A stretch of DNA of 34,930 bases from Methanotrichaceae archaeon. GTDB lineage: Archaea; Halobacteriota; Methanosarcinia; Methanotrichales; Methanotrichaceae. Made by a program: the position numbers and the translations under genes. This document shows positions 1,200 to 17,512 of this stretch, in pieces. A model generated the notes under the pieces. That model was not told where the DNA came from and did not search any database. It saw only the letters and a program-made list of their open reading frames with translations. Numbering within the stretch: position 1 is the first letter of the stretch; every line of letters begins with the position of its first letter. The DNA is taken from contig CAVWIG010000047.1 of NCBI GenBank assembly GCA_963754945.1, positions 1 to 34,930 on the forward strand, given 5' to 3'.

Positions 1200-2891
1200 A
1201 TGATAACGAATATTAATCATCAAGATAACAATATGCTGATCCCAGCTTTGATTAGGATTGGTGTGACTGGCCATAGAGATCTTAAAGATTCGGAATTAAT
1301 AAGGCGTAGTATAAGGGAAGCTCTCAATGAAATAGAAAATTTAATCAATAATTTAAGATATAATTGTGAATATACATTCTCAATACTTTCTCCACTAGCT
1401 GAAGGCGCTGATCGTCTAGTAGCCGAAGAAATTCTTAAGTGGCCTGGGAAAAAAGGAGACTTCAAACCGATTCTTGAGGCTGTGCTGCCATTTCCCGAAA
1501 CAGAATACATGCTTGACTTTAAGACTGAAGTTTCTAAGAGGGCTTTCAAAGATCTGTTGGATCAGGCGAAATCTGTCAAAGTTCTTACCCAAATAGGGCC
1601 TCGTAATGCAGCATACGAAAAAGTAGGGCGATACATCGTTAATGGCTGCGATCTTTTAATAGCAATATGGGATGGAAGTCCTGGTAAGGGAATAGGAGGA
1701 ACCGATGACATAGTCGATTATGCTCTCAAACGTAAAAGATACATAATATGGATAGACTCCGAGAGGGGAAAAATCAGGGATTATCCAGACATAAAAGCGA
1801 AGCTTAGATTCAAAAGTAATCTTGAATCAATTCTAAATCAGTTAGGTCGCTACAATAACGAACATATAGGCAGAAATAAGTCTAAATTCAATGTAGAAAT
1901 GGATCACTATTGCAATGAACTGATCGGAAATGCAGAGAATAATGGCATTTCTTCCGATGTCCTGAAGCCCATCATAGGGAGACCGATGTATCATTTGGTT
2001 AGGGCTAACATGTTAGCTGGCCTTTATCAAAAGTGCTACAATGAGATAGGATTCATAATCTACCTGTTTGCTGGAGCCTCAGTTCTGATTGTCCCCCTTC
2101 AAATTTTCTTTTTCCAACAATATGATAATTTGCTGTGGTTAGAAGTCTTTTTTATATCAATTGCAGTAATTTTATTTATATTATTAGAAAGATATTCTTG
2201 GCATAATAAATGGATTGAATATAGGCACTTAGCCGAGCAATTACGCGCTGCGATATTTTTCTCGCTGGCGGAAGACGCTAATAATCAGGATATATTTTCT
2301 AAACATGAAATCCCCAAATGTACTGTTGCAGGATCAACATCCTCTATAAGTAGTCCAAATTTTGTGATTAAATGGACAGAGTTAGCCGTTTCATGGATAA
2401 TGTTATCGCGACCTTTATCTCGAACAGAAATTCCAATTGAATCGCTCAGGAACTTTCTATCAGAGGCATGGATTTGTGATCAGCAATCCTATTACAGTAA
2501 TAAATGCCACGAATACCGATGGAAACATCTAGCGCTCGATGGGTTAGGTCTACTATTAATCTTAGCGACCATTTTTGCGGCAATTTTACATGCAAGTAAA
2601 ATTGAAATCCCTCCTCTAGGTCTCCGGGAAAGCCATCTTACTTTCGTAGCAATAGTGCTGCCGATAGCGGGTACAACAATTGCGGGCATTAGGGTCATTA
2701 AGGAATACATGCTTAATGCTGAGAGGTATAGGCATATGGCTAACCAACTCTCTGAGATTAAAAGTGAGATAAAACAAGCGAAAGATCTATCGAGTTTAAC
2801 TGAACTTGCCAAACATGCGCGAGACATTATGCTAGATGAACATGACGAGTGGCGTGTAGTTGTAAGCAGCACCGGCAAGCTCAATTTATGA
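1200..2891 (+). CDS. SLOG (YspA-like) nucleotide-binding domain fused to two SLATT/DUF4231-like 2TM modules
   Basis: SLOG motifs IGVTGHR, SPLAEGADRLVAE, EAVLPF and CDLLIAIWDG...GGTDDIVDYA. Two TM hairpins with SLATT-like signatures WIEYRHLAEQLR, WICDQQSYY and DEHDEW. Alternative start at ATG 1233. Confidence 0.75.
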   Translation: MITNINHQDNNMLIPALIRIGVTGHRDLKDSELIRRSIREALNEIENLINNLRYNCEYTFSILSPLAEGADRLVAEEILKWPGKKGDFKPILEAVLPFPETEYMLDFKTEVSKRAFKDLLDQAKSVKVLTQIGPRNAAYEKVGRYIVNGCDLLIAIWDGSPGKGIGGTDDIVDYALKRKRYIIWIDSERGKIRDYPDIKAKLRFKSNLESILNQLGRYNNEHIGRNKSKFNVEMDHYCNELIGNAENNGISSDVLKPIIGRPMYHLVRANMLAGLYQKCYNEIGFIIYLFAGASVLIVPLQIFFFQQYDNLLWLEVFFISIAVILFILLERYSWHNKWIEYRHLAEQLRAAIFFSLAEDANNQDIFSKHEIPKCTVAGSTSSISSPNFVIKWTELAVSWIMLSRPLSRTEIPIESLRNFLSEAWICDQQSYYSNKCHEYRWKHLALDGLGLLLILATIFAAILHASKIEIPPLGLRESHLTFVAIVLPIAGTTIAGIRVIKEYMLNAERYRHMANQLSEIKSEIKQAKDLSSLTELAKHARDIMLDEHDEWRVVVSSTGKLNL

Positions 2892-3049
2892 GTGAAATCG
2901 TATGCAAAGCAGATCTCTGCCGAAACATTAATATGCAGATCTTTGAACCTTGAGTTAACTCTGTAAAAGACAGATAAATCTGGGTTTCTATTGAGATGGA
3001 GTATCGTGAAATGACCAAGAGGATCAATTCTGTGATGGAGTGAAGGACT

Positions 3050-3697
3050 GTGTCAGTAAAGTACTCCTGTTTCATAAGTTATTGCCACGGTAAGCGGGAG
3101 CTAGTGTCGGAATTTATCCCGCAACTTAAAAAAACTTTGGAAGCCCACCTGGAACCATATCTTGAAGAAGAAGAATTAGAAGTGTTCTGCGACACTGAAG
3201 ACATCAATCCTGGGAATTTATACGAAGAGACTATCGCTCAGGCAATCTGTAATAGTCTTTGCATGATAGTAGTATATTCTCCCAAGTATGAACTTCACCA
3301 ATTCTGCCTTCGAGAGTTTCGAGCCATGGAGATCTTGGAAAAGAAGCGATTAAAACGTTTGGGAAAAAATGTACCTAAGGATTCAGGAATGATAATTCCC
3401 CTTATATGGAGAGGTGATATAGGAAACCTGCCACCAAGAATCTCAAACATTCGGCAACATTGTGATTTTACCAGAATTACTTGTGCGAGAAATCTCAGGA
3501 ATCAGCAAGCGTTAAAGAAAATTGATGATATAGCGCTATATATCTATAATCTATATAAATTTTTTGATAAATGTGGGTGGGATCCCTTCGAGAAATGTCC
3601 CTCATTCAGACTACCCGATGTTAACGAAGTTCCTCCGTTAAGGGATTCAAATAAGCCGCATTCAGCTCCCTTCCCTGGGAGATGGAGTGGTCCCTAA
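3050..3697 (+). CDS. TIR domain protein (TIR_2, FxsC-like) with the catalytic Glu intact
   Basis: CFISY, VFCD...INPG, MIVVYSPKY, FCLREF (WCxxE equivalent), IIPLIW. GTG start preceded by GGAGTGA. Confidence 0.88.
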   Translation: MSVKYSCFISYCHGKRELVSEFIPQLKKTLEAHLEPYLEEEELEVFCDTEDINPGNLYEETIAQAICNSLCMIVVYSPKYELHQFCLREFRAMEILEKKRLKRLGKNVPKDSGMIIPLIWRGDIGNLPPRISNIRQHCDFTRITCARNLRNQQALKKIDDIALYIYNLYKFFDKCGWDPFEKCPSFRLPDVNEVPPLRDSNKPHSAPFPGRWSGP

Positions 3698-5824
3698 ATG
3701 CTTCAAAAAAAAGCAGGCCAAGTAATAACTTTCTACTCCTTTAAAGGTGGAACAGGACGGTCGATGGCTCTGGCTAACGTCGCCTGCCTCTTGGCTCAGC
3801 ATCACATATATGGTGACAAAGGTGTGATAATGCTGGACTGGGATCTCGAGGCTCCGGGCCTGCACCGCTTCTTTCGGGATAGGTTCAACAAAGCCGAAGT
3901 GAAAAGTAAGGATTTAGTCGGCACTATTGAGGAGAGACCTGGGTTGATAGACCTCTTCTGGGAGATGAATAAGGAGCTAGAGGAGCTTTCTCTGTCAGCA
4001 GACAAGGAATGTATAACTGATGAGGATGAGTTCGTAATTAAATTGCTCAATAAAATCGATTTTAAAAGGTTTATTATAGAAACTGATATACCTAATTTAT
4101 ATATCATAAAAGCTGGTAGCTCAGGTGATCAATACTATTCTCGAATGCGCAGTTTCCCTTGGGAGTCGTTTTATAATCGGGCTCCATGGTTGATGAGAGC
4201 CTTTGCTGAGAGGCTATCAGAGCTTTATCAATACGTCCTGATCGATTCGCGCACTGGTCTCACAGATATAAGTGGCATATGCACAAAATTACTACCAGAA
4301 AAATTAGTTCTTGTTTTTACACCAAGCCGCCAAAGCTTAGACGGGGTATTGAATCTTGGCAGATGGGCGACTAACTACAGAATGGAATCAGATGATCTAC
4401 GACCTGTAATAATCTATCCTCTTCCTTCGCGAATAGAAGCTGCAGAACCCGAATTGCGGAGAATTTGGCGTTACGGAAGTGGAGATGAGATCAATGGATT
4501 TCAGCCACGATTCGAGAAACTCTTCGAGGAAGTCTACGAAATATCCGATTGCAACCTCGAACCCTATTTCAAAAAGATTCAGATACAGCATGTACCTCAC
4601 TATGCTTACGGGGAAGAAATTGCAGTACTGGATGAAGAGTGCAAGGACAGATTCTCTCTAACGGAGAGCTACGAGATCTTTACAAATTGGCTTGTGAACC
4701 TTTCAGGACCATGGGAGGCAAAAGATTCTATCAAGGCTGAGCCAAAGACCCTAATCGTAGATCAGATGTGCCGGACCGATTATAAGACGATAGGTGAAGC
4801 CATAATGGCAGCTAACCCTGGAGACGAAATCCTTGTGAGACCAGGCTTATATCAAGAGAGCCTTTTAGTTACCAAACCTTTGGAGATTGTAGGAGACGGA
4901 GATCGTGGTGATATAGTTATAAGGGCTGCAGACGGCAGCGTTATTACTTTCAGGACAACACGAGGTCGAATTTCGAATTTAACACTTCAGCAAGTAGGTA
5001 AAAAGGATTGTGTTGATATCTCAATGGGTAGATTGGATCTCGAAAATTGCGACATAACTAGTCAAGGTTCAGCATGCATTGGTATTAGTGGAGGCGCCGA
5101 CCCTAGGATCAGAAAATGTCTTATCCATGATAGCAGACAGAGTGGAGTCATTATCCATAATAGTAGCCAAGGTACGCTTGAAGACAATGAGATTTCTAGC
5201 AACTCTCTCACTGGAGTGGATATAAAGGAAGGGTCTCACCCCATTTTGCGCCGCAACAAGATTCATAATGGTAAGAATAGGGGAGTCTACATACATGAAG
5301 ATGGAAAAGGACTGATCGAGGAGAATGATATAACCAATAATGTAACTGGCGTAGAAATTAGCGGCGGTGGCAATCCTTTCCTGTCCCGTAATCGTGTTCA
5401 TGACTCTAGAAAAGATGGGATCTTGATTCAAAAGAAAGGCAAAGGTACATTGGAGGAGAACGATATCTACTCTAATGATTATGCTGGTGTGCGGATAAAG
5501 TCTGGTGGCGATCCGCTGATTATTCGAAATAAAATTCGCGATGGAAAAGGCGCCGGTGTATTCATCTTGGAAAAAGGCCATGGAAAGCTCGAAGATAACG
5601 AAATCTTTGGCAATACACATGATGGCATAGCTGTAGAAGAGGCTTATTGTTCAATACATCGAAATAAAATTTATCGAAATGGCTTCCATGGCATACATAT
5701 CCATTTCAACAGCAGAGGTCCTGATATCTCGGATAATGATTTGAGAGACAACCTAAAAGGAGCATTCCTTTTGCCTACTGATCGAAGTGGTTTAAAGCTC
5801 AAGCTATCTAATAACCTCGAATAA
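3698..5824 (+). CDS. ParA/MinD-like ATPase (KGGxGR variant) fused to a right-handed parallel beta-helix (NosD/PbH1-like)
   Basis: VITFYSFKGGTGRSMALANVA, LDWDLEAPGLHRFF, YVLIDSRTG, VPHYAYGEEIAV. The C-terminal half starts YKTIGEAIMAANPGDEILVRPGLYQE and continues with ~23-aa GVxIxxxxxG/PxLxxNxI repeats. Confidence 0.88.
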   Translation: MLQKKAGQVITFYSFKGGTGRSMALANVACLLAQHHIYGDKGVIMLDWDLEAPGLHRFFRDRFNKAEVKSKDLVGTIEERPGLIDLFWEMNKELEELSLSADKECITDEDEFVIKLLNKIDFKRFIIETDIPNLYIIKAGSSGDQYYSRMRSFPWESFYNRAPWLMRAFAERLSELYQYVLIDSRTGLTDISGICTKLLPEKLVLVFTPSRQSLDGVLNLGRWATNYRMESDDLRPVIIYPLPSRIEAAEPELRRIWRYGSGDEINGFQPRFEKLFEEVYEISDCNLEPYFKKIQIQHVPHYAYGEEIAVLDEECKDRFSLTESYEIFTNWLVNLSGPWEAKDSIKAEPKTLIVDQMCRTDYKTIGEAIMAANPGDEILVRPGLYQESLLVTKPLEIVGDGDRGDIVIRAADGSVITFRTTRGRISNLTLQQVGKKDCVDISMGRLDLENCDITSQGSACIGISGGADPRIRKCLIHDSRQSGVIIHNSSQGTLEDNEISSNSLTGVDIKEGSHPILRRNKIHNGKNRGVYIHEDGKGLIEENDITNNVTGVEISGGGNPFLSRNRVHDSRKDGILIQKKGKGTLEENDIYSNDYAGVRIKSGGDPLIIRNKIRDGKGAGVFILEKGHGKLEDNEIFGNTHDGIAVEEAYCSIHRNKIYRNGFHGIHIHFNSRGPDISDNDLRDNLKGAFLLPTDRSGLKLKLSNNLE

Positions 5825-5878: not shown

Positions 5879-7444
5879 CTAATTGACTCCATTATTGATT
5901 AGGCCGTTTTCTTTTAGTACTTTTTCGATAGATAGCAAACGCGACTCAATTGATATTAGTTGTTCTCCAGGTATGATCTCCATATCTGACTGTGATAGAT
6001 CTTCTACTTCTGGAAGGCTAAATATACTTAGCTCATCGTTGAAAATTTGCTTGTTTCCCTTCTCGATTCTTGATAAAGAGTCCTCCAGTTTAGTTAACAA
6101 ACCATTTGGCCCAAAGAAATAGTTCTCAAGGGCTTCTGTAGTCCTTGCTGGCATCTCTGACCTTATTAATCCCGTTCTATTAAATTCTATATATCTGATT
6201 GAATTTTCGATTATCCTATAAATGCGATTTTCGAATGTTCCTTTTATTCTATGATTTCCTGAGGACCCATATGGATTCCTCAACAGAATTAAAATCTCGT
6301 TATTCCCATTTCCTATTTTGCGCCAGACTTGTACGTCTTTCTCTAAAATCTTAGTTTGCAAGGCTATTGATTTTCGAATCGCTTCAGAACTAAGAAAACC
6401 TCTGGCGAAAACATATGCATTATCTGCATTTTTAGGGTCGCACGAGAATAATCGTCCCTTGTTAAGCGCGGATCTAACGAGTTCATCTTCGTGCCCTTTT
6501 TTATCATTATCGATCCAATAGCACGGGACGAGGATTGGTGGAACATTGAGTTTATTCGATTGCTGAAATTGCTCCTTTACGGCAAGGCTAGGGGCATCCT
6601 CTCCAGGATAGTTCCGCTGTGCAATAAGCGGCTTCATAGTTTGATAGATGAATTTATTCGCCTCATTATAATCATATCTAAATTTTTCCATGAGGATCTG
6701 ATTATCCACCAATATAAGGCCGTCAATACCCAACCCAGTTCTCTTTGTAAGGAGATCGTAGATCGAAATGACCGCTCCTAAATCTCTTTTCTCCTCTTTC
6801 GCTCCTTGTTGCTTGTCCTCTCCCTCTTCGGTTAGAATGCCCAGTACTAAGATAGGAAACTCTTTTCGCTCAGCCCTTATGTATCCTGTTATTGGATTGA
6901 TGAAACCAGTTCCGGTGCCTCCGCCTAGAGATACTATGAACAGTATCCCATCACTCAAGCCCGATCTATTTTGGTTCTCTTCAGTTTCTGCTAAGGTGGT
7001 ATATGGGCGTATAATCTTCCATGTATTCCTGAGGATCGGGTTATCAAAGCCAGACTCTCCTATTGCGACTCTTCGCAGCTCTTGATCAAAATCGAATATT
7101 TCGAAAATAGCCTTCAGATATTCTGCCTGTCTAAAGAAACCCTGCTTTTTTAGGTCGTACCCGTATTTATCCTGTATAAGGCGTGCAGTTTTCGACTCCG
7201 TATCGAGAACATCGTGAGGTATAAAGTAGAATGGATAATATGCATTTCCTAGAGAGTTAACTGGTTTAAAAAACTTCGTATTCTCTGTCTCTTGAACATC
7301 TGCCTCAAGCCATAATCCTTTTGCATCACCAAAGCAGATGTAATTTCCTAAATACGAGCTAAAGATAGGAACATCATGGTTCTCTAAGAATATCTCAGCT
7401 ATTTTACCTCCACAACCACCTATCCCTACTATTAAGAGTTTCAT
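5879..7444 (-). CDS. Divergent tubulin/FtsZ/CetZ-superfamily GTPase
   Basis: CetZ-like T1 loop MKLLIVGIGGCGGKIAE, tubulin signature SLGGGTGTG, GLILVDNQ. 521 aa with a helical C-terminal extension. Confidence 0.85.
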   Translation of the reverse strand: MKLLIVGIGGCGGKIAEIFLENHDVPIFSSYLGNYICFGDAKGLWLEADVQETENTKFFKPVNSLGNAYYPFYFIPHDVLDTESKTARLIQDKYGYDLKKQGFFRQAEYLKAIFEIFDFDQELRRVAIGESGFDNPILRNTWKIIRPYTTLAETEENQNRSGLSDGILFIVSLGGGTGTGFINPITGYIRAERKEFPILVLGILTEEGEDKQQGAKEEKRDLGAVISIYDLLTKRTGLGIDGLILVDNQILMEKFRYDYNEANKFIYQTMKPLIAQRNYPGEDAPSLAVKEQFQQSNKLNVPPILVPCYWIDNDKKGHEDELVRSALNKGRLFSCDPKNADNAYVFARGFLSSEAIRKSIALQTKILEKDVQVWRKIGNGNNEILILLRNPYGSSGNHRIKGTFENRIYRIIENSIRYIEFNRTGLIRSEMPARTTEALENYFFGPNGLLTKLEDSLSRIEKGNKQIFNDELSIFSLPEVEDLSQSDMEIIPGEQLISIESRLLSIEKVLKENGLINNGVN

Positions 7445-8049
7445 CTTGCCACCACCTTCTCCACGCGGATAAGGAATGGAGACAACAGTATGACCTCCGA
7501 TACTAGAAGTCCCAGGAAAGCAGCCAATTCTGTTAAGGCTGGCGAGCTGTTAGGATATAAAGTTCCTGCGTAAGCGGAGCAAAATAAAGATACACCTAAC
7601 AACGGAATTGTTCCCATGATAAATTTTTTTGTAGTCCAAGAAATTTCGTAAAAGCTATAAAACCGCGCGAAACTAGCGCCAATTAATCCAGTCACAAGAA
7701 TCACTATAGCGCCAAGTATGAAGAAGCCAAGTGGGCTTGACGCTAAATCTGGAACACGGAAATAGTTTATACTAAACACGGTAGGTGTCAGAAAATAGAA
7801 ATATGCAATTGTCACAAAAAGAAGGCTCCATGCACTGATCGCTATTGCAATGAAATTCGAGCCCTGTGATTGTGACATCACCTCGTAAAGGAGTTCTCTC
7901 GAAATATGGCCTTTGGAGAGGCTTGATATCCTTTTGTAAACTCTTTCAAGATTATATATATGAAGCAGTATACCAAAAATCAAGAATCCCACAACTAGAA
8001 GCAATGTCAGGGGACTCAATAGCATTTGTATTAGACTTTCCAGATCCAT
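7441..8049 (-). CDS. Multipass membrane protein (about 5 TM helices), unknown function
   Basis: Several long hydrophobic segments. Likely ATG at 8049 just after the upstream stop (the track start is 8082). Its stop overlaps the tubulin start (ATGA). Confidence 0.75.
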   Translation of the reverse strand: MDLESLIQMLLSPLTLLLVVGFLIFGILLHIYNLERVYKRISSLSKGHISRELLYEVMSQSQGSNFIAIAISAWSLLFVTIAYFYFLTPTVFSINYFRVPDLASSPLGFFILGAIVILVTGLIGASFARFYSFYEISWTTKKFIMGTIPLLGVSLFCSAYAGTLYPNSSPALTELAAFLGLLVSEVILLSPFLIRVEKVVAR

Positions 8050-8053
8050 GAGA

Positions 8054-9517
8054 TTACTTCCCCCTTCTTCTATAGAACCCACGCTCCACTAGGACACCAA
8101 CCAGCAGGGATAATGTCATAATAAGCGATAGGTTTACGATCATCTCTGGGGCATAGATGGAATATCTCACAAGTTTGGTATTGATGCTTTCCGGTCCATC
8201 AATAATTGCTGATCCAGAGTTTCCGTTCTCATCCGGCAGAGAGTACTTGAAATAGTATCTGAACATTTGGCCGCAGTCTGCTACATCGAAAGGTTGAATG
8301 TCCTTAAAGGATACATCTTCGAATTTGTCGCCCGGTATGGGAACGGTCTGAGATGTTATATATCTCTGGGGGTGAGCAGGAGTATCTGTGTATAGACTCA
8401 CAGTTAACATCCCTCCATCAGGATTTTGGCTCTTTGCTTTGAACCCAAAGTTGTACTTCTGCCACCAGTAGTAGTTGTTATCCTCAGGATCCACAACTAT
8501 GTCTTTTGTTTTCATCATTGGGTTACGCTTCAAATGCGGTCCATCTCTAATCTCAGTCCATGTGGTGTTTTTGCCACCTAATACACCATCACTACAGGAA
8601 TAACGATAGCTGAAATTCTTGCCAGAGTCTTTTTCACTGAAAATATTCTTGTCTTTAGTGCTGAATTCTATTTTATCACCTAACTGGAACAATTTGGTTA
8701 TATTATTGGTTTCAATCCTATTGTTGAGAATATGGAGGGTTACACGTCTCATATCTTTTTTCAGATCAGTGTACGATGTGTTTTGAACCTTGTTGTCCAA
8801 AGTAGCAGTGTACTGAATAGTGTCGTCCCAGTTTGCAGGATCTGGGTTCACTAACATAGACGTATTGTTGATTTGTGGGGGAATGTTATAGACGTTGAGC
8901 GCCAGTTCGTGATAATATCCGTTTTCTGGATCATCTTTTTGAATGCTTGAATCGTATTTGTATTGCCCGTCTGTGACATAGATCTTTAATCGAACATCGC
9001 CTACTCGCCCGAGATAGTCAAAAGAGCTAAGTTCGGGAAAGATACGCAGGGATGTGTTTTCTCTACCGTCGTACTCGTTAACCTGAATTATCTGAGTGGC
9101 TACTTTGGCTGGTTTGAAGCTGCTCTCCCCTGGTTCCTGTATTTCTAGGGTTAAATATAGAGCCCTCCTGAGCTCAATAGGATTGGTGTTCACAACCAAG
9201 GCACCTATTTCTATTGGATCGTATCTAGAGATCGTCTTGTTTTTGGTGGGATAGTATAACCAGACTCCGGGCGGGACGTAATTTGTGGTTGTGAAGCTCT
9301 GTTTATAAAGTAGCGTTTTCAAGTAATCAAACCTATCCGGATAATTGGTCTTCCAGCTCTCCACTTGCCTGATGAAGTTCTCTATATCAGGAGACCTGCT
9401 TCCGCCTCCGCTGCTGCTTATTGTGACTTTTTTTGGGGGGGAGGGATGTATGTCACCTAAAGCGACAATGGTAAATAAACAAGTTGCCACGAGGAGAAGT
9501 ACCAAACTCTTCCTCAT
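8054..9517 (-). CDS. Secreted protein with a C-terminal membrane anchor
   Basis: Signal peptide MRKSLVLLLVATCLFTIVALG; Asn/Thr/Tyr-rich body with many NxS/T sequons; C-terminal TM helix + GFYRRRGK. TGATG overlap with the upstream gene. Confidence 0.8.
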   Translation of the reverse strand: MRKSLVLLLVATCLFTIVALGDIHPSPPKKVTISSSGGGSRSPDIENFIRQVESWKTNYPDRFDYLKTLLYKQSFTTTNYVPPGVWLYYPTKNKTISRYDPIEIGALVVNTNPIELRRALYLTLEIQEPGESSFKPAKVATQIIQVNEYDGRENTSLRIFPELSSFDYLGRVGDVRLKIYVTDGQYKYDSSIQKDDPENGYYHELALNVYNIPPQINNTSMLVNPDPANWDDTIQYTATLDNKVQNTSYTDLKKDMRRVTLHILNNRIETNNITKLFQLGDKIEFSTKDKNIFSEKDSGKNFSYRYSCSDGVLGGKNTTWTEIRDGPHLKRNPMMKTKDIVVDPEDNNYYWWQKYNFGFKAKSQNPDGGMLTVSLYTDTPAHPQRYITSQTVPIPGDKFEDVSFKDIQPFDVADCGQMFRYYFKYSLPDENGNSGSAIIDGPESINTKLVRYSIYAPEMIVNLSLIMTLSLLVGVLVERGFYRRRGK

Positions 9518-11232
9518 CAATATCTCCTCTCATCTACCCGGATGGTTGGGTGCCATGGCTGGTTCTCCCATTTGAGGGTAATCCAAGGCGGTTGATCGCT
9601 GGAATTATTTCCTAGTGTATAGTTTCTGAAAAGGCCGGATCTCTTCCAGGTAACAGAGTCGTCGGAAAACATCAGCTCCATCTCTACCTTGGGGAGGCTT
9701 GACCTGACCTCTGCGGAATAATCAAGGTTGGAATCCGGGCGATTCCTGGCGCTTTCGTTACGTACTGCCACGTCTATCTTCGGCCCTGGGAACTCCCCCA
9801 GGACTGAATTGTCCATTACCAATCTGTATTTGCCAACTCCAAGAACCTCTGGGGAACTCCGGAAAGACAGATCGGGCCATTTCAGAACGTTGTAGCTCAT
9901 GCTGTACGTTTGCCTTCCTTGAGCCTGCCAGATAGTGCTGTTCGGTGGCTGTATTTCCAGGCCTATATCACAAGCCGATTTGGTGGTAGTTATTCTGGCC
10001 GTATAGCTGAAGGGCGTGTAGATGGACCCGTTAGCCGGGGTTACGTTGGCTTCGATCTCCCAGCTATTCACATATGGGCCTTGATAGTCCTGGCCCAACA
10101 TATCCTTGGTGGAGTTGAAGCTTTCTGCTGAGCCGGGATAATGGAAACTGAAGTTGTAGCTTGATTGGCCAGCCACATCCTCATTGGAAGTGACTTTGAT
10201 GCCTGACCAGGTAAGCTGCTCCCAAGTAGAGCTGTTCACGTAGCTCTTGGCTCCTGCCAGGAAGTACTTCCCTGTCCCTGGGTCCAGCACATTCAATCCG
10301 ACATCAATTGGTTTGGACGCGTTGAGTTCTAGGCCGTAACTGAACTCCGTCCTCGGAGTTCCATTCAGAGGTGACAGAGTGTTATTCCTGAACTGCAGTG
10401 TTATCGGCCAGACTGGACCAACCTTGGGCTGCGACTCTATCCTGCCCACGAATCTGTAGTAAGCGGCATTAAAATCGAAGTTCAGGCTCTTGTTATTCCA
10501 GTATAGTGTCTGGTAGCTGCCTGGTGTAGAGTACTCCCGTTTGTCCAGATCAATCCAGGGGACGTTTTGGGACGGTCTGACCTGCAATGTTATGTTATCT
10601 TTGTAGCTTCCCAGTATCGTTACCTTATAACTGTAGAGATTCTCGTTCGTCCCTTGTTTTGGGCTGACGTCAGCATCACTATATTCGAAGATTGTTTTCA
10701 TCAATTGAGGATGGCCACTATAATCTTCAAGTGGCACAAGCTGTTCTCTAAATTGACTGATTTCGGCATGATACCAGGCCCTGTCCCATATTCTTGCGTC
10801 GTTCTTATCTTTGAGCCATTGGTTAAACTCGCCTTGATTGATGCTAGAATCATGGAAATTGACGCTAAATGCAATGATTTTCGTCTGGTGCGGGTCGACG
10901 AAAATGTCACTTTTGGTTTGTCCTAAATATGTCGAGGGGTTGTCTTTATCTGGACCTACCTTTAGTGTAACGCTATAGCTCAGGGTGGAACTCTGTTCAT
11001 TGGTAATTGGTATATTATATGTGACAGTACCGTCTACAGATAGAGGCTCTGCAGTCGAGCCTCCTTGCGAAAAAGAGACTTGGCACAAGGCCGTAGTGGT
11101 TAAAAGCATCATAACGGCACCGACGAGCATAACTAATTTGATGTAAGTCACTCTTACCACGCTCAACTCAGGACACGCTTTAAGGAAGCCAGTTCTCTTT
11201 ATTAAGTTTTTGGCGCAGGCATCCGATTCCAT
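9517..11232 (-). CDS. Secreted protein with about four ~100-aa beta-rich repeats
   Basis: Hydrophobic signal LVMLVGAVMMLLTTTALC (true start probably downstream of 11232). Repeats VSPKQG..YSY, LSPLNG..FSY, VTPANG..FSY. Confidence 0.78.
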   Translation of the reverse strand: MESDACAKNLIKRTGFLKACPELSVVRVTYIKLVMLVGAVMMLLTTTALCQVSFSQGGSTAEPLSVDGTVTYNIPITNEQSSTLSYSVTLKVGPDKDNPSTYLGQTKSDIFVDPHQTKIIAFSVNFHDSSINQGEFNQWLKDKNDARIWDRAWYHAEISQFREQLVPLEDYSGHPQLMKTIFEYSDADVSPKQGTNENLYSYKVTILGSYKDNITLQVRPSQNVPWIDLDKREYSTPGSYQTLYWNNKSLNFDFNAAYYRFVGRIESQPKVGPVWPITLQFRNNTLSPLNGTPRTEFSYGLELNASKPIDVGLNVLDPGTGKYFLAGAKSYVNSSTWEQLTWSGIKVTSNEDVAGQSSYNFSFHYPGSAESFNSTKDMLGQDYQGPYVNSWEIEANVTPANGSIYTPFSYTARITTTKSACDIGLEIQPPNSTIWQAQGRQTYSMSYNVLKWPDLSFRSSPEVLGVGKYRLVMDNSVLGEFPGPKIDVAVRNESARNRPDSNLDYSAEVRSSLPKVEMELMFSDDSVTWKRSGLFRNYTLGNNSSDQPPWITLKWENQPWHPTIRVDERRY

Positions 11233-11349
11233 AGAAAATTAAGAACTTTGCTTTACTGAGGGCCGAAACTAAGCAACAATACTTACCGCTTAACTGCAAT
11301 TAGACTAAATAATCGCGATCTTTGAAAAGAAAAACAGTGTAGAATTGGG

Positions 11350-12495
11350 TTAAATCCCCAGCACCTTGCCCGCGGCCTCGACACCTGCACCTCTGGATGG
11401 CAGCTTTCCCTCTTTGGCCAGCACCAGCTCCAAGGTCTGAATTGTTCTGAGGATATCGCTCGTGGAGCATACTCCCATAGTGCCTATCCTGAAGATCTTG
11501 CCTTTGAGCTTCTCCTGGCCTCCGGAGACGACCACTCCCTGCTTCTTCATGCCGCCCCTGAGCTTGTCATCAGTGATCCCGGCGGGCATCTTCATTGCCG
11601 TTACGGTATTGGAGTAATGAGAGTACTCGTTCACCTGGGGGAACAGCTCGATATCCAGCGCCTTTGCGGCTGCACGAACCGACTCGGCGAGCTTGGCAGT
11701 TCTGGTCTTGCGTGCCTCGAAGCCTTCCTCCTTGGCCATGTGCAGGGCCTCCTGTAGGGCATAGAATAGAGGTACTGCCGGTGTGTACGGAGTCTGGGCC
11801 GGGCTCTTTCTAGCACTCTTGAGGTGAGCCTTCAAATCTGCGTAGTAGCTTGCGCTCTTATCCTGGAATCGCTCCTCTGCTCGCGGGGACACGGAGACGA
11901 TTGCCAGGCCAGGGGGTACTGCCAGTGCCTTCTGGGAGCCTGTTATGGCTATATCAACATCCCAGGCATCGGTGTGGAACTCGTTGCCTCCGATTGAGGA
12001 GATACCATCCACGATGAATACGGCATCGTGCTTGTGGGCAAGTTTTCCCACCTCTTTTGCAGGGTTGATCAGCCCAACAGAGGTCTCGTTGTGGACCATT
12101 GCAACGGCCTTGGCACCCCCTTCGAGAGCAGCCTCAACCTTGTCCAGATCTATTGGAGTGCCCCATTCAGACTTTACGGGCACAGCCTTTCCATAACGCT
12201 CGCCTATCTCGGTGAACCTCTCACCGAACTTGCCATTTGATATTGTTACGATCTTGTCTTCCCTGCCGATTAGGCCGGCAACTGCTGCGTCCATGCCCAC
12301 AGTTCCGCTGCCGGTCATGACGACAATATCGTTCTTTGTCTCGAAAAAATCCTTGAGCAGATTGCGGCAATCTTCGTAAATAGCCCCGAAGTCGCCGCTC
12401 CGGTGGCTGATCATGGGCCTGGACATGGCCCGAAGTACTCGTGGCGCTACCTTCACTGGCCCCGGTATCATGAGCAACGTTTCTTCTATATCCAA
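11350..12495 (-). CDS. Class V PLP-dependent aminotransferase (alanine-glyoxylate/serine-pyruvate/phosphoserine type)
   Basis: LMIPGP, ISHRS, VHNETSVG, IVDGISS, ITGSQKAL (PLP lysine), TPYTP, FRIGTMG. TTG start. Confidence 0.93.
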   Translation of the reverse strand: MDIEETLLMIPGPVKVAPRVLRAMSRPMISHRSGDFGAIYEDCRNLLKDFFETKNDIVVMTGSGTVGMDAAVAGLIGREDKIVTISNGKFGERFTEIGERYGKAVPVKSEWGTPIDLDKVEAALEGGAKAVAMVHNETSVGLINPAKEVGKLAHKHDAVFIVDGISSIGGNEFHTDAWDVDIAITGSQKALAVPPGLAIVSVSPRAEERFQDKSASYYADLKAHLKSARKSPAQTPYTPAVPLFYALQEALHMAKEEGFEARKTRTAKLAESVRAAAKALDIELFPQVNEYSHYSNTVTAMKMPAGITDDKLRGGMKKQGVVVSGGQEKLKGKIFRIGTMGVCSTSDILRTIQTLELVLAKEGKLPSRGAGVEAAGKVLGI

Positions 12496-12528
12496 CAGGA
12501 TCCCTCAGATGGATACTGCTAGGGCGGC

Positions 12529-13164
12529 CTATATAAAACTAGCTTTTATACGCTGAGCCGTAACCCAGGTGTGCCTTGCACAGGGTGGAAGGTCTCCGTG
12601 CTCCTTAACCCACTTGCCCAGGAATTCGATGGTCAGGGGATCACCTGGGTAGCCGCTTCCTATTATGCAGTTCATGGACTGCTCCAGCTCCCGGACGGAC
12701 TTGTCTCTTTGCACCTTGGCCAGGATTGATGCGGCCGAGACTACCGGATAGTTCTGATCGGCCTTGTGTTCGGCCAGGATCTCCATGGATGTGCCGCTGG
12801 CTTTTCGTACCCGTTCGCCGAATCTGGCCTCGTTTACGTCCGCGGCGTCGAGGATAGCACGGTTTGCGGACGAAAGCCTCTGTAGAACCTGGGAAAAGCA
12901 GCGGACCATGATGTCATTCATGGTCATGACCTGGCGCAGCTCGTCTATGACTCTGGGGGCGACCTCCAGGATGTACTTATCGTCAGCTATCTTGTCTAGC
13001 TTCTTGGCCATGAGCTCCCTGCGCTCTGGAGTTAGCTGCTTGGAGTCCTTCACGCCGATCGCTGCCAGGTCGAAGAGCTTCTCCTCGTCGATGACAAGTC
13101 CTGCCACGAACATGGAGCCGATAACGGGGCCTTTGCCGGCTTCGTCTACACCAAGGAGGAGCAT
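12529..13164 (-). CDS. rnhB: Ribonuclease HII
   Basis: GVDEAGKGPVIG, GVKDSK, HKAD...VSAASILAKVQRD, GSGYP. Confidence 0.96.
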   Translation of the reverse strand: MLLLGVDEAGKGPVIGSMFVAGLVIDEEKLFDLAAIGVKDSKQLTPERRELMAKKLDKIADDKYILEVAPRVIDELRQVMTMNDIMVRCFSQVLQRLSSANRAILDAADVNEARFGERVRKASGTSMEILAEHKADQNYPVVSAASILAKVQRDKSVRELEQSMNCIIGSGYPGDPLTIEFLGKWVKEHGDLPPCARHTWVTAQRIKASFI

Positions 13165-13409
13165 TGAATTTTGGTTTTTGCGATGAAGATATTTTAAGTG
13201 ATCGACATCTGAGAAGAAAGAGTAACTCGCAGGTATGATGAATTGGTAATTCTGTATGTGGTGCTCTCATTTTCGGACTTATCATCTGGGCGGACGTGGC
13301 GGATTCACTTGTAGATTGCAAAACCCATGAAGGCCCGTATGAAGCTGGACATATCCTTGCTCTGCAAAGGTTCAACCTAATGCGACGTGAGTATGATGAA
13401 TTTTTGCTA

Positions 13410-14591
13410 GTGCACCATAACGCAAGTTTTAAATCTTATAAAAGGTCTAGAATATAGATTGTGGCAAGAAAAACAAAATTCTGTGTGAAACTGGAAGAGA
13501 AAGAACGAGAAGAGTTGAACCAGTACATCCGTCGTGGGAAGTCGTCTGCAAGGAGTTTAACTCGCGCAAGAATACTGCTCCTGGCCGATGGAGGGCAATC
13601 CGATGCGGAGATCATTGATGCATTGAAGGCGAGCAGAACGACAATAGTGAGGATAAGAAAGAGATATTTCGAGGGTGGCCTGGAATCTGCATTGAATGAA
13701 AGATCTCGCAGTGGAGCGCCTCCGAAGATAGATGCACGAGTTGAGGCTAAACTGACCGGCATTGCTTGCTCAGATCCGCCTGAAGGCAGATCGAGATGGA
13801 CGCTGAATCTATTGGCCGACAAGCTTGTTGAGCTGGGGGAAGTGGACTCGATCTCAGGAATGAGCGTTTGCAGAGCGTTAAAAAAAATGAAATAAAGCCA
13901 TGGCTCAAACAGCGATGGTGCATAGGGAGCATGACGAGCGAATATATCTGGAACATGGAAAATGTATTAACTCTGTACGAGCAACCATATGATCCGAGGC
14001 ATCCTGTGGTTTGTTTCGACGAGAGGCCATGCCAACTGATAGGCGATGTCTTAGTGCCTATACCCATGAAACCAGGCAGTCCGAAGAAGGTGCATTATGA
14101 ATACGTCCGTAACGGGACATGTTGCATCCTTATTGCTTTTGATCTTCATGCAGGAAAAAGAATGATTCGTGTCATGGAGCACAGGACAAGGGTGGACTAC
14201 GCCCATTTCATGAAAGAACTTACCCAGCAATATCCAGGTGTAGAATCCATTCGATTGGTCCAGGATAATCTCAATACGCATACTTCAGGCTCATTTTATA
14301 ATGCTTTTGCGCCTGAAGAGGCGTTTGAGCTGGCTAAGGAGTTCGAATATTATTATACGCCAAAGAAAGGTAGCTGGCTCAACATGGCTGAGATAGAACT
14401 CTCAGCCCTATCGAAGCAATGCCTCGATCGTCGGATTGGAGACATCGATACTTTAACCAAAGAGGCTTCGGTGTGGGCACAAGAACGTAACGCAAAAAAA
14501 ACTACTGTAAGATGGAAATTCACGAAGAATGATGCAAGATTAAAGCTAAACAGGCATTATATTAATTTGCAAAATTAATGTTATGGTGCAC
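13410..14591 (+). mobile_element. IS630-family insertion sequence, complete
   Basis: Terminal inverted repeats GTGCACCATAAC (13410-13421) and GTTATGGTGCAC (14580-14591), extending imperfectly inward. Flanking TA at 13408-13409 and 14592-14593, each in a CTAG context. Confidence 0.93.
13461..14578 (+). CDS. IS630 transposase, orfA (13461-13895) + orfB joined by a -1 frameshift
   Basis: HTH region RARILLLAD...WTLNLLA. DDE residues in CFDERP, VQDNLNTH and WLNMAEIE. A8 run at 13880-13887 gives LKK/NEIKPW. Confidence 0.9.
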
Positions 14592-14665
14592 TAGGTACAC
14601 TCTTTGTTCAGAACAGCACTTATTGCCACTTCAATAAGTAATAATTATTCGCAAATGATCATTCA

Positions 14666-16102: not shown

Positions 16103-17512
16103 CTGTACTTTCCAACTTTTTCGTATATTTATAATATCATCAGATTAAATTAGAATATAAATTTAATAAAAAAAATAAAAAGTAAGGGTTTTATACTAGG
16201 ATCAAATTCTCTCTTTTGGGAGTAGAATGATCAAAATAATAAAGGTACCATTACAATTAGAGCCGTTCTTGAATGAATTTCAGGATCTTTTTACGAAACC
16301 GAGTTATGGATCGTTTCGAGATTTGTGTGGAGCGTTAAGCGTGTGTGATAAATCCAAGACCGTTTCCAACCTTTGTGATACTATGGCCGAATGTAGGAAA
16401 GGAAAAAAAGCACGCTCTTCGTACAATTGGTTCTTTAGCGATGCGAATTGGGACGAGGATGAAGTTGCTCAACGCAAAGTGGACCTTTTTATTGAGAAAT
16501 TATGTTTAAAAGAAAATGATAGAATGTTGTTAATAATTGATGACACATACAATGAGAAGGAAGGAACTCAAACGGAAGGTGTAGGAAAATTTTATGATCA
16601 TAGTAAAGAAACCTACATTTGGGGTAACAATTTTGTTACCTCTGTTATCCAATCCAAAGGATTATTCATACCACATAAAGCTAAGATGTATATCAAGAAT
16701 GATGACGAAAATGAGAATTTTAGAACAAAAATGGAGATTGCCTTGGACGAGATCATTGAACCATTAGAAGTACCAAAAAGCATGGACCTTTATATCGTTT
16801 TCGATAGCTGGTGGTTTTCTTCTGATCTCTTTAACAAGTGTCTCAAATTAGGGCATAATATAGTCTGCCAAATCAAATCTGATAAGAAAATCAGGATAAA
16901 TAAGGACATGTGTTTTCAGGTTAGAGACTTAGCAAACCAAATTGAGGATAAGTATTTTATTAAGACAACTATTAGTGTTCGGGGCAAAAAGAAGACCTAC
17001 TATGCATTTGAAAAGAAGGTAGTCATAGACAAGGTAGGCGAAGTTAAACTTGTAGTCTCAAAGAGAAAAAAGGAGAGCACTACAAAATATTTTATAAGCA
17101 CTAATGAATCGCTTTCGTCGAAAGAAATACTCTCAATTTACGAGGATAGATGGGATATCGAGACGGCCCACAGAGAGACAAATCAAAAATTAGGATTCAA
17201 AGATTACCAATTAAGAGAAAAACAATCAATTGAAAGATTTATTCAGCTAGTCTTCTCAGTATGGACTGCGATTCTCTTATGGGAAATAGACAATCCGCCA
17301 TCTGGGGACGGTTCAAATCCAAGAACTATGGGCGACATGATCGACCTAGTAAAAATGCAAGCATTAGGTGAAACATTTGAATATGTGCTGATGTATTTTA
17401 ATATACCCGTACCGGAAGGCGGATTGCTTTATATACTCAGAAGCATGGGATTGAAAATATAATTTGATATAATTTAGAAAATATAAATAAAGGAGAAACT
17501 TGGAAAGTACAG
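16103..17512 (+). mobile_element. IS701-like (IS4 superfamily) insertion sequence with an 11-bp target duplication
   Basis: 20-bp TIRs: CTGTACTTTCCAACTTTTTC (16103-16122) versus the reverse complement of GAGAAACTTGGAAAGTACAG (17493-17512), 18/20 match. Direct repeat TAACCGTCCAT at 16092-16102 and 17513-17523. Confidence 0.92.
16227..17462 (+). CDS. DDE transposase, IS701-like
   Basis: LIIDDT, VFDSWW, YEDRWDIETAHRETNQKLGFKDYQLR. Confidence 0.9.
   Translation: MIKIIKVPLQLEPFLNEFQDLFTKPSYGSFRDLCGALSVCDKSKTVSNLCDTMAECRKGKKARSSYNWFFSDANWDEDEVAQRKVDLFIEKLCLKENDRMLLIIDDTYNEKEGTQTEGVGKFYDHSKETYIWGNNFVTSVIQSKGLFIPHKAKMYIKNDDENENFRTKMEIALDEIIEPLEVPKSMDLYIVFDSWWFSSDLFNKCLKLGHNIVCQIKSDKKIRINKDMCFQVRDLANQIEDKYFIKTTISVRGKKKTYYAFEKKVVIDKVGEVKLVVSKRKKESTTKYFISTNESLSSKEILSIYEDRWDIETAHRETNQKLGFKDYQLREKQSIERFIQLVFSVWTAILLWEIDNPPSGDGSNPRTMGDMIDLVKMQALGETFEYVLMYFNIPVPEGGLLYILRSMGLKI

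Follow-up and report, generated by a model that had tools for sequence, protein, structure and literature searches.

The described proteins nearest to the one considered here are CetZ and FtsZl1. As far as the accessible parts of the papers go, cetZ genes of Methanosarcinales have NAD-biosynthesis genes as neighbours, and a single clear CetZ is reported per genome (Brown and Duggin, 2023; PMC9856176), and FtsZl1 proteins are ~1000 aa long, with an FtsZ-like domain at the N terminus, a long coiled coil and an alpha-helical C-terminal domain, and their genes have those for von Willebrand A (vWA), GTPase and OmpA proteins as neighbours (Makarova and Koonin, 2010; PMC2875224). A further group, Halo.Tub, is described in the accessible part of its paper as CetZ-like proteins of Halobacteriota with some tubulin-like blocks, occasional tandem copies and uncharacterised, mostly coiled-coil neighbours (Santana-Molina et al., 2023; PMC9871819). 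The main texts of PMC9871819 and PMC9856176, in the parts available, mention neither Methanothrix, Methanosaeta or Methanotrichaceae nor an operon of membrane and immunoglobulin (Ig)-like proteins.

Here we describe an operon of this kind in a 34,930-nt stretch of DNA from a Methanotrichaceae archaeon (assembly GCA_963754945.1, contig CAVWIG010000047.1, positions 1 to 34,930), hereafter the window. Its four genes, which we call sec, surf, tm and tub, encode a secreted protein, a membrane-anchored surface protein, a protein with about five transmembrane (TM) segments and a cytoplasmic tubulin homologue. Methanotrichaceae are sheathed, filament-forming archaea, set apart in their envelope by the sheath with its spacer plugs, and are among the main acetate-using methane producers. 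We find the operon to be real, conserved and lineage-specific, and its predicted GTPase to belong to a distinct family; its function we infer. The explanation we favour, and hold with middling confidence, is that the GTPase forms membrane-tethered filaments and that this system organises an envelope structure outside the cell and evolves under viral pressure. Our literature search, which did not reach supplementary tables and trees, found no paper describing the operon or the tub family; the description of Methanocrinis, in its accessible part, says only that 'several FtsZ' genes are present.

Layout and distribution of the operon

The open reading frame (ORF) list of the window places the four genes head to tail on one strand in the order sec-surf-tm-tub (Table 1). 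The first-pass annotation, made from the letters of the window, had described their junctions as coupled, and all three read in the sequence as it had said. The sec stop TGA (9519-9517) and the surf ATG (9517-9515) have one base in common within TGATG at 9515-9519; between the surf stop TAA (8056-8054) and the tm ATG at 8049 lie 4 nt (8053-8050); and the tm stop TGA overlaps the tub ATG in ATGA at 7441-7444. Upstream of sec there is a 117-nt gap and then, on the same strand, genes for a class-V aminotransferase and RNase HII. Most sec homologues are 532-571 aa long, and comparison with the longest ORF suggests that the true sec start may lie ~25 codons inside it.

Topology was called from a hydropathy scan of the four proteins. 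It found zero hydrophobic segments in tub, five in tm (six windows, two of them overlapping), a signal-like N-terminal segment in surf together with a C-terminal TM helix followed by RRRGK, and in sec a signal-like N-terminal segment as the sole one. This agrees with the secreted, anchored, multi-pass and cytoplasmic assignments made earlier, and the envelope-spanning arrangement drawn from them fits the predicted topologies. The sec protein carries 14 N-X-S/T sequons and surf carries 8. Neither these two proteins nor tm reached a curated Pfam or NCBIfam family. RNA contigs from three peat metatranscriptome runs match sec at 90-99% likeness, and one X4 RNA contig has pieces of at least 49 nt on either side of the sec/surf junction, though such contigs cannot show a single transcript and DNA carry-over is possible. 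The runs shared at most 8% of sampled words with the locus, and the lack of RNA cover on tub and most of tm proves nothing.

To compare neighbourhoods, ~18 kb around tub was searched with the window proteins in 20 loci from 20 genomes, covering at least 12 genera. Every locus held tm and surf (20/20), and all but L032 and L042 held sec (18/20); the order was always sec-surf-tm-tub, and in 13 of the 20 loci the aminotransferase and RNase HII genes lay upstream. Junctions in most of these loci were between -4 and +6 nt, mostly 4-nt overlaps, the larger overlaps coming from longest-ORF start calls. Seven further loci, from two-copy genomes or short contigs, held tm (7/7), surf (7/7) and sec (6/7, two of them weak). 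In all, the gene order recurs in 27 loci of 24 other genomes, so the neighbourhood from which the first-pass annotation argued is kept among homologues. Second tub copies elsewhere in a genome bring their own partners, and the module has therefore been duplicated as a unit. In G009 a second tub stands in tandem downstream of the operon tub (L080, G009:C441; 1307-2692 and 3095-4507), the two being 46% and 59% identical to the window tub; this is the one tandem tub here, and tandem copies are likewise occasional in Halo.Tub.

We found tub in 89 of 105 genomes of the family, including 61 of 64 high-quality ones, and in 15 of its 16 genera. Among 301 genomes of the class, strong tub matches occurred only in the window's family (88/104); matches elsewhere in the class had E values of 1e-4 to 1e-7, and those listed lie in PF13809-type ORFs of 1050-1190 aa. 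Profiles of surf and tm were each searched in 401 genomes of the phylum. Each hit 11 of 12 family genomes; among 388 others, surf hit two (one strongly, one at E 4e-4) and tm one. A genome of a different family of the phylum carries the whole operon on a 14.8-kb contig of 41% GC (L081, G335:C75:1-14776; one of the seven genomes of that family), which is either a rare transfer or a mis-binned contig. The operon is lineage-specific, occurring almost only in Methanotrichaceae.

Three high-quality genomes of the largest genus, G034, G043 and G045 (99%, 98% and 95% complete), gave no match to the tub family, even by profile. In these genomes RNase HII and aminotransferase are followed directly by other ORFs, with zero match to any of the four genes. 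The operon, near-universal in Methanotrichaceae, is therefore dispensable in these three.

The tub protein and its place in the tubulin superfamily

By curated profiles tub narrowly misses Pfam Tubulin (PF00091): its score is 31.6 bits, the cut-off being 33, and the match is limited to residues 161-206, around the T4 loop. New-family proteins score 22-32 bits to this model, and tub homologues carry precomputed PF00091 matches; the miss is borderline in score, not in fold. The protein misses every curated family cut-off in Pfam and NCBIfam, with 12.9 bits to the FtsZ equivalog TIGR00065 (cut-off 295.2) and 13.2 bits to Tubulin_2, PF13809 (cut-off 27), to which a 1066-aa protein of the sister family scores 50.5. 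The Pfam scan found no match to FtsZ_C (PF12327) in tub, and a sequence search against solved structures returned at best a tubulin at E 0.38.

Relatives of tub numbered 366 at E <= 0.001 among the scored candidates of a search of 5.8 billion proteins. Among the 120 matches listed, all organism-named ones belong to Methanotrichaceae, Methanothrix or Methanocrinis, the best being 69% identical; identity within the family is 38-69%. A profile search of 1.84 billion representatives returned 137 proteins at E <= 0.001, of which 94 passed 1e-10 and 52 passed 1e-30. On these counts the tub family is small and sharply bounded. The same ranking contains a second tier of metagenomic proteins (P0306-P0356, E 1e-49 to 1e-14, 420-1300 aa) that match profile positions ~150-480, the C-terminal domain included, and may represent further undescribed tubulin-superfamily families related to tub.

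An alignment of 32 members (A1) shows where the family is constrained. Invariant or nearly so are the motifs T1 GIGGCGG, T4 SLGGGTGTGFINP, LTE, VDNQ, PILVPCY and LLRNPYG, the T4 motif of tub itself reading SLGGGTGTG, and the invariant columns include G7, G9, G10 and G12 (T1), S172 and G174-G178/G180 (T4), T205 and D247/N248. Both elements of the tubulin/FtsZ superfamily signature are present, namely GGGTG(S/T)G in T4, as defined in the accessible part of PMC2875224, and a glycine-rich T1 loop. Outside the GTP-binding motifs tub varies, with lineage-specific insertions of up to ~60 residues. The T7 region after H7 reads YPGED... and is mostly acidic at 282/283, not invariant. Judged from this region, polymer-activated GTP hydrolysis by tub is plausible.

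The first-pass annotation had called tub a divergent tubulin-like protein, and fold prediction bears this out. An AlphaFold2 model built from the 32-member alignment had a predicted local distance difference test (pLDDT) of 85.1 and a predicted template modelling score (pTM) of 0.86. With this model, the top Foldseek matches in the PDB were eukaryotic tubulins (E ~1e-14, ~500 columns). In an exhaustive VIA-align run against 48,161 representative chains, the best structural match was CetZ2 (4b45; Z 29.1, root-mean-square deviation (rmsd) 2.8, 314 aligned, 20% identity), followed by the CetZ of Methanosaeta thermophila (3zid; 27.6), BtubA (25.6), yeast tubulin (24.7), FtsZ (24.6), Asgard and Odin tubulins (~24), gamma-tubulin (22.9), TubZ (20.6-22) and PhuZ (20-21), with unrelated Rossmann folds at 7.9 or less. 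Residues 1-421 up to 1-467 align with CetZ, BtubA, tubulin, FtsZ, OdinTubulin, TubZ and PhuZ at Z 20-29. According to the model, the complete two-domain fold of tubulin/FtsZ extends in tub to about residue 466 and comprises the N-terminal nucleotide-binding domain, H7 and the C-terminal domain. After this core come a low-confidence linker (478-497) and a C-terminal helix (499-512), an arrangement that resembles, and may be analogous to, the tail with which FtsZ binds its membrane anchors. Identity as TubZ or PhuZ was considered and rejected, since the locus is chromosomal, with the RNase HII and aminotransferase genes next to it in 13 of 20 loci, and the Z scores of 20-22 lie below those of CetZ; the Pfam scan found no DNA-binding partner of the TubR type in the operon.

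The structural ranking raises the question of whether tub is simply a divergent CetZ or FtsZ paralogue acting in shape or division, with functionally unrelated neighbours. Besides the two CetZ structures at the top of the list, a profile-profile comparison speaks for it, the new family matching CetZ with an hhalign score of 85 (probability 96.9, E 1.5e-10) and FtsZ with scores of 38-55. FtsZ and CetZ themselves score 83-87, however, which makes the new family about as distant from CetZ as FtsZ is. Three complete or near-complete family genomes each hold separate FtsZ genes (416-444 bits to TIGR00065, with FtsZ_C) and, beside tub, a separate CetZ-type gene (ORFs of 367-408 aa, 110-121 bits to PF00091); the window's own genome, 88% complete, has one other strong Tubulin match besides tub. 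The low TIGR00065 score and missing FtsZ_C also count against a paralogue, as does the retention of the tm-surf order and overlaps in all 27 loci, with second copies having their own partners. The conserved synteny largely refutes this explanation, and we consider it very improbable. What tub shares with CetZ is a two-domain fold, a detectable profile relation, a T6 motif of DNQ type and a tail that follows the core at the C terminus. It differs in its ~20% identity, its length (521 aa versus ~367), family-specific inserts between T1 and T4, faster evolution (38-69% identity versus 69-98% for canonical CetZ within the family) and its place in an operon alongside genes for one membrane and two surface proteins.

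In a quick maximum-likelihood tree with 60 rows (32 new-family, 14 CetZ, all from Methanosarcinia, and the rest FtsZl1-type and two FtsZ groups), each of the five groups stood on one side of a branch. Support was 89 for the new family, 98 for CetZ, 99 for FtsZl1-type, and 98 for one FtsZ group and 90 for the other. A branch with support 98 has the new family and CetZ on opposite sides. Nesting of tub within canonical CetZ, which would have counted against the first-pass interpretation, is thus not supported; the new family forms a clade of its own, and a separate conserved CetZ is present in each family genome examined.

The same tree joins the new family to the FtsZl1-type proteins, opposite FtsZ plus CetZ, with support 98, which bears on a second alternative: that tub is a short member of FtsZl1 (Pfam Tubulin_2) and takes part in a membrane-remodelling system like the one predicted for that family. 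In profile-profile comparison the new family indeed matches best the N-terminal domain of the 1050-1180-aa PF13809 proteins of the sister family (score 96.7, probability 97.4, E 1.2e-11, 200 columns), to which CetZ scores 40, and weak direct matches occur at E ~1e-6. In genus g21 of that family (L068-L073), FtsZl1-type PF13809 proteins of 1051-1182 aa give the best profile match to the GTPase domain of the new family. As far as the accessible FtsZl1 description goes, the two are alike in being divergent, in having inserts between T1 and T4 and in a predicted membrane role with multi-gene partners. On the other side, tub falls well short of the PF13809 cut-off, has half the length (521 versus ~1000 aa), has neither the long coiled coil nor the alpha-helical C-terminal domain, and has a predicted tubulin-type C-terminal domain, of which the paper found none in FtsZl1. 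Its partners are five-TM and Ig-like proteins, the Pfam scan of the operon proteins having found none of the vWA, distinct GTPase and OmpA neighbours, and it is confined to one archaeal family. The join is of two very long branches (stems 5.33 and 1.64) and may be an artefact. We hold the sister relation to be tentative because the branches are long, a careful tree search is unfinished and the CetZ rows are only from Methanosarcinia, and membership in FtsZl1 itself we consider improbable. We conclude that tub represents a family of its own within the tubulin/FtsZ superfamily, one whose nearest structural match is CetZ, yet which is not CetZ, FtsZ or FtsZl1. For cytoskeleton evolution this adds a family that keeps the whole tubulin fold and lies between CetZ and FtsZl1 in profile space, and it could make FtsZl1 easier to align with other members of the superfamily.

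Membrane and extracellular partners

The gene next to tub is tm in 27/27 loci. An alignment of 18 tm orthologues (A2) has 11 invariant columns, and the first loop is basic and conserved (H30 ... QGSNF) and, by the positive-inside rule, probably cytoplasmic. We regard tm as a putative membrane adaptor of the GTPase. The first-pass annotation had suggested predicting a complex of all four proteins; prediction was run for the tub-tm pair, which passed weakly, with a score of 0.59 against 0.00 for the best control, at least 86% agreement in contacts between runs and a partner pLDDT of at least 73. Of 80 solved complexes, 58 reach the mark for passing, as do 2 of 110 mismatched pairs, and at scores of 0.60 or less lie only 7 of the 80 solved complexes and both of the passing mismatches; custom alignments were used, so these counts hold roughly. 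The model thus lends weak support to a tub-tm contact, and as much to an arrangement that spans the envelope. Pfam and NCBIfam scans found no similarity of tm to SepF, FtsA or ZipA, and tm belongs to no PADLOC family. Atlas look-ups for sec and tm gave scores of 0.84 or less with low recognition values and serve as leads only.

The AlphaFold2 model of surf (mean pLDDT 80.4) comprises a signal peptide, a helical hairpin, three beta-sandwich domains (residues ~80-210, 212-331 and 333-446; Ig/fibronectin type III (FnIII)-like) and a TM helix. The protein ends in this C-terminal helix and a short basic tail that is predicted to be cytoplasmic, and E478/R479 are invariant among 20 orthologues (alignment A3). 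The best VIA-align match was to the Ig domains of PECAM-1 (Z 10.5, rmsd 6.3, 194 aligned), with single Ig-like domains at Z 9-10; overall the sandwiches match domains of Ig, FnIII and PKD type at Z 8.5-10.5, a generic fold. For sec, offset second tblastn alignments indicate internal repeats. Its Atlas leads are weak (CARDB/DUF11/FixG_C Ig-like clusters, scores of 0.83 or less), and it probably carries Ig-like beta-sandwich domains. The 35 sec homologues have no Pfam family, and just two of them bear a taxon name, a Methanotrichaceae archaeon and an 'uncultured archaeon'. The earlier description of sec and surf as extracellular repeat proteins therefore holds up, through three tandem Ig-like domains in the surf model and the repeats seen by tblastn in sec.

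Taken with the GTP-binding motifs, these features suggest how the operon might work. In the explanation we favour, tub would bind GTP and form filaments along the membrane's inner face, where the co-inherited tm, and possibly also the conserved basic tail of surf, would tether it. Through tm and the surf tail it would position or pattern an extracellular assembly of surf and sec, which could be a sheath-, septum/spacer-plug- or surface-layer-associated structure. By analogy, tub probably works like FtsZ with its anchors (SepF in archaea, FtsA and ZipA in bacteria), as a GTP-dependent filament kept at the membrane by contact of its tail with an adaptor and organising an assembly on the far side. 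In contrast to the FtsZ divisome, the outside partners are Ig-like structural proteins, not enzymes, and the operon is dispensable in three genomes. The accessible part of a sheath study reports that plug composition, sheath-assembly factors and the way these cells build and divide within the sheath are unknown, and that no conserved context was found for the sheath genes (Medvedeva et al., 2024; PMC11576556); it also reports homologues of the major sheath protein MspA (Mthe_1069, ABK14853.1) in only a few strains. As sec and surf are near-universal, identity of either with MspA is unlikely. The operon offers a testable candidate set for envelope assembly in the family, consisting of one GTPase, one adaptor and two surface proteins.

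Several points weigh against an organiser of envelope structure. Identities of 38-69% within one family are unusual for a cytoskeletal protein, when CetZ there keeps 69-98%. The tub-tm prediction passes only weakly, and the absence of the operon from G034, G043 and G045 argues against an indispensable division or plug role. The T7 region of tub matches neither the FtsZ nor the tubulin catalytic-loop motif (NxDxxD, GxxNxDxxE), so GTPase activation in a polymer is uncertain. The Ig-like folds of sec and surf are generic and give no clue to the structure built, and the link to sheath or plug comes only from a shared taxonomic range and is weakened by the three operon-less genomes. GTPase activity, polymerisation, tub-tm binding, the extracellular structure involved and viral pressure are all things we infer.

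Variation of the tm-tub half, fusions and neighbouring genes

The four genes do not evolve alike. In two genomes of the window's genus, identity to the window was 97% and 97% for the aminotransferase and 95% and 94% for RNase HII, and it fell to 67% and 87% for sec, 53% and 60% for surf, 36% and 49% for tm and 44% and 55% for tub. The window tub is nearer to tubs of other genera (53-59%) than to one of these same-genus tubs (44%). By blastn, the window aligned with same-genus L048 over 9069-13409 at 79%, and nothing aligned below this point, where the remainder of surf, tm, tub and the downstream islet lie. GC content is 52-55% at 11001-13000, in the housekeeping genes, 47-48% at 9001-11000 and 40-41% at 6001-9000. 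These two changes mark an approximate recombination breakpoint inside surf (Table 1). Across genomes, identity of the aminotransferase to the window correlated (Spearman) with that of RNase HII (0.81), sec (0.71) and surf (0.52), in contrast to tm (-0.32) and tub (-0.29; n=17), and tm correlated with tub (0.48; n=27 loci). These correlations are descriptive, as related genomes are non-independent and p-values overstate. From such comparisons we read the tm-tub half as a site of exchange or of long-term upkeep of divergent alleles, a pattern typical of diversifying pressure.

A second unexpected feature is the appearance of the tub domain in other proteins. Among the representatives of the profile search, five metagenomic proteins carry it C-terminal to other modules. 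P0277 combines DUF4062, NB-ARC and an APAF-type winged helix and helical domain with a tub domain 48% identical to the window tub; P0284 has CHAT, NB-ARC and a winged helix (43%); P0332 has Trypsin_2 and NB-ARC (36%) and P0326 has NB-ARC (40%), both cut by a contig end; and P0281 has a KAP NTPase (45%). The tub part of P0277 is 58-65% identical to free-standing tubs of genus g12 of the family, and the fusions therefore come from close relatives. They are rare, forming five clusters of 1-4 members on contigs of 2-6.6 kb, and with P0277 as query none was found in the 105 family genomes. An apparent NB-ARC-tub fusion in G031 was rejected, since the tblastn extension into query positions 417-564 was spurious and the locus is a normal sec-surf-tm-tub operon.

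In STAND (signal transduction ATPases with numerous domains) proteins the C-terminal position is normally that of the sensor. The rare tub relatives sit at this position, behind an effector, NB-ARC and winged helix, as in the STAND/NLR (NOD-like receptor)-like antiviral proteins Avs and bNACHT; unlike such proteins, the window tub is free-standing and has no NTPase partner. Our literature search found no report of a tubulin-type STAND sensor, and the main text of PMC13581612 has 0 occurrences of 'tubulin', 'FtsZ' and 'PhuZ'. It is possible that the fused tub is an integrated decoy of a virus-targeted host protein, or that its polymerisation is used as a trigger. Together, the hypervariable tm-tub half and tub at the STAND sensor position suggest a cytoskeletal element caught in host-virus conflict.

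Hypervariability, the three operon-less genomes and recruitment by STAND proteins complicate a purely structural role, and they bear most on the main alternative, in which the operon serves biological conflict first of all, by sensing viruses, excluding them or mounting an abortive response. Here tub would oligomerise as a signal or effector, in the way its domain does in fusions with STAND NTPases, and the hypervariable surface Ig-like proteins with tm and tub would detect or block viruses at the envelope. This would account for tm and tub identities of 36-49% and 44-55% between flanks 94-97% identical within a genus, for the break in DNA homology in surf at ~9069 with its GC drop, for the decoupling of tm and tub similarity from the flanks and for the clean absence of the operon from three high-quality genomes. 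A set of SLATT, TIR and KGGVGR genes directly downstream and the placement of tub domains behind DUF4062 and NB-ARC, CHAT and NB-ARC, Trypsin_2 and NB-ARC or a KAP NTPase point the same way. Known defence systems are typically patchy and widely transferred, however, whereas this operon is present in 61 of 64 high-quality family genomes, at a fixed site in 13 of 20 loci, and a search of 388 other genomes of the phylum turned it up on one contig only. All four proteins matched 0 families in PADLOC-DB 2.0 at E <= 0.001 (a 2023 library of described systems only). Pattern scans of viral collections gave 310 matches for tub and 166 for surf, zero of them confirmed as relatives, and the fold matches of tub in BFVD are generic phage tubulins, 9-14% identical. 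The fusions, rare as they are, may equally mean that free-standing tub is a target guarded by NLR-like proteins. We therefore think a primary conflict system rather unlikely, though deserving of serious attention. It and a structural role are not fully exclusive, as an envelope module exploited by viruses would show both sets of features.

Viral pressure is part of the filament system that we favour. The membrane-proximal half (C-terminal surf, tm and tub) behaves like an exchangeable, fast-evolving cassette, and we read this, together with tub in STAND proteins, as a sign of viral interaction. A more specific and distinctly doubtful version has tub forming membrane rings or arcs that template, through tm, the inward assembly of a spacer plug or of sheath or septum from the Ig-like proteins, with swaps of tm-tub between lineages, driven by viruses that must breach or exploit this structure, and NLR-like capture of tub as a decoy or co-polymerising sensor. 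In this version a tubulin homologue would pattern an extracellular protein structure. Such a capture would be the first of its kind known in prokaryotes.

The genes around the operon are listed with it in Table 1. Downstream of it and convergent on it is a low-GC islet that looks like a defence-type gene set. It is not conserved beside the operon in other genomes, except for a match to the beta-helix protein in same-genus L079.

Table 1. Positions of the operon genes and other features in the window
Feature	Position	Strand	Description
sec	9517..11232	minus	longest ORF, 571 aa
surf	8054..9517	minus	487 aa from ATG at 9517; 488 aa from TTG (ORF 8054-9520)
tm	7441..8049	minus	202 aa from ATG at 8049; 213 aa from GTG (ORF 7441-8082)
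tub	5879..7444	minus	521 aa
Approximate recombination breakpoint inside surf	9000..9100	none	blastn edge at 9069 and GC drop
Low-GC islet	1200-5824	plus	the three genes that follow
SLATT protein	1200-2891	plus	563 aa, C-terminal SLATT_1 domain
TIR-domain protein	3050-3697	plus	resembles FxsC N-terminus
KGGVGR-motif AAA ATPase with parallel beta-helix	3698-5824	plus	708 aa; PADLOC candidate PDC-M28B, E 4.9e-17
IS630-like element	13461-14578	plus	two overlapping ORFs, HTH_32/HTH_29 then DDE_3 transposase
Second transposase ORF	16227-17462	plus	DDE_Tnp_2 / ISC1217-type, 411 aa
PGF-CTERM ORF	30-713	plus	at window edge; ends in PGF-CTERM motif

Same-genus L048 is without the stretch that holds the IS630-like element (window gap 13409-14608, corresponding to L048 16260-16282), and we therefore take the element, which lies between RNase HII and a pyridine-nucleotide disulphide oxidoreductase, to have inserted recently. 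The second transposase lies in a stretch of 35% GC. The motif that ends the ORF at the window edge is the signature of an archaeosortase-processed surface protein.

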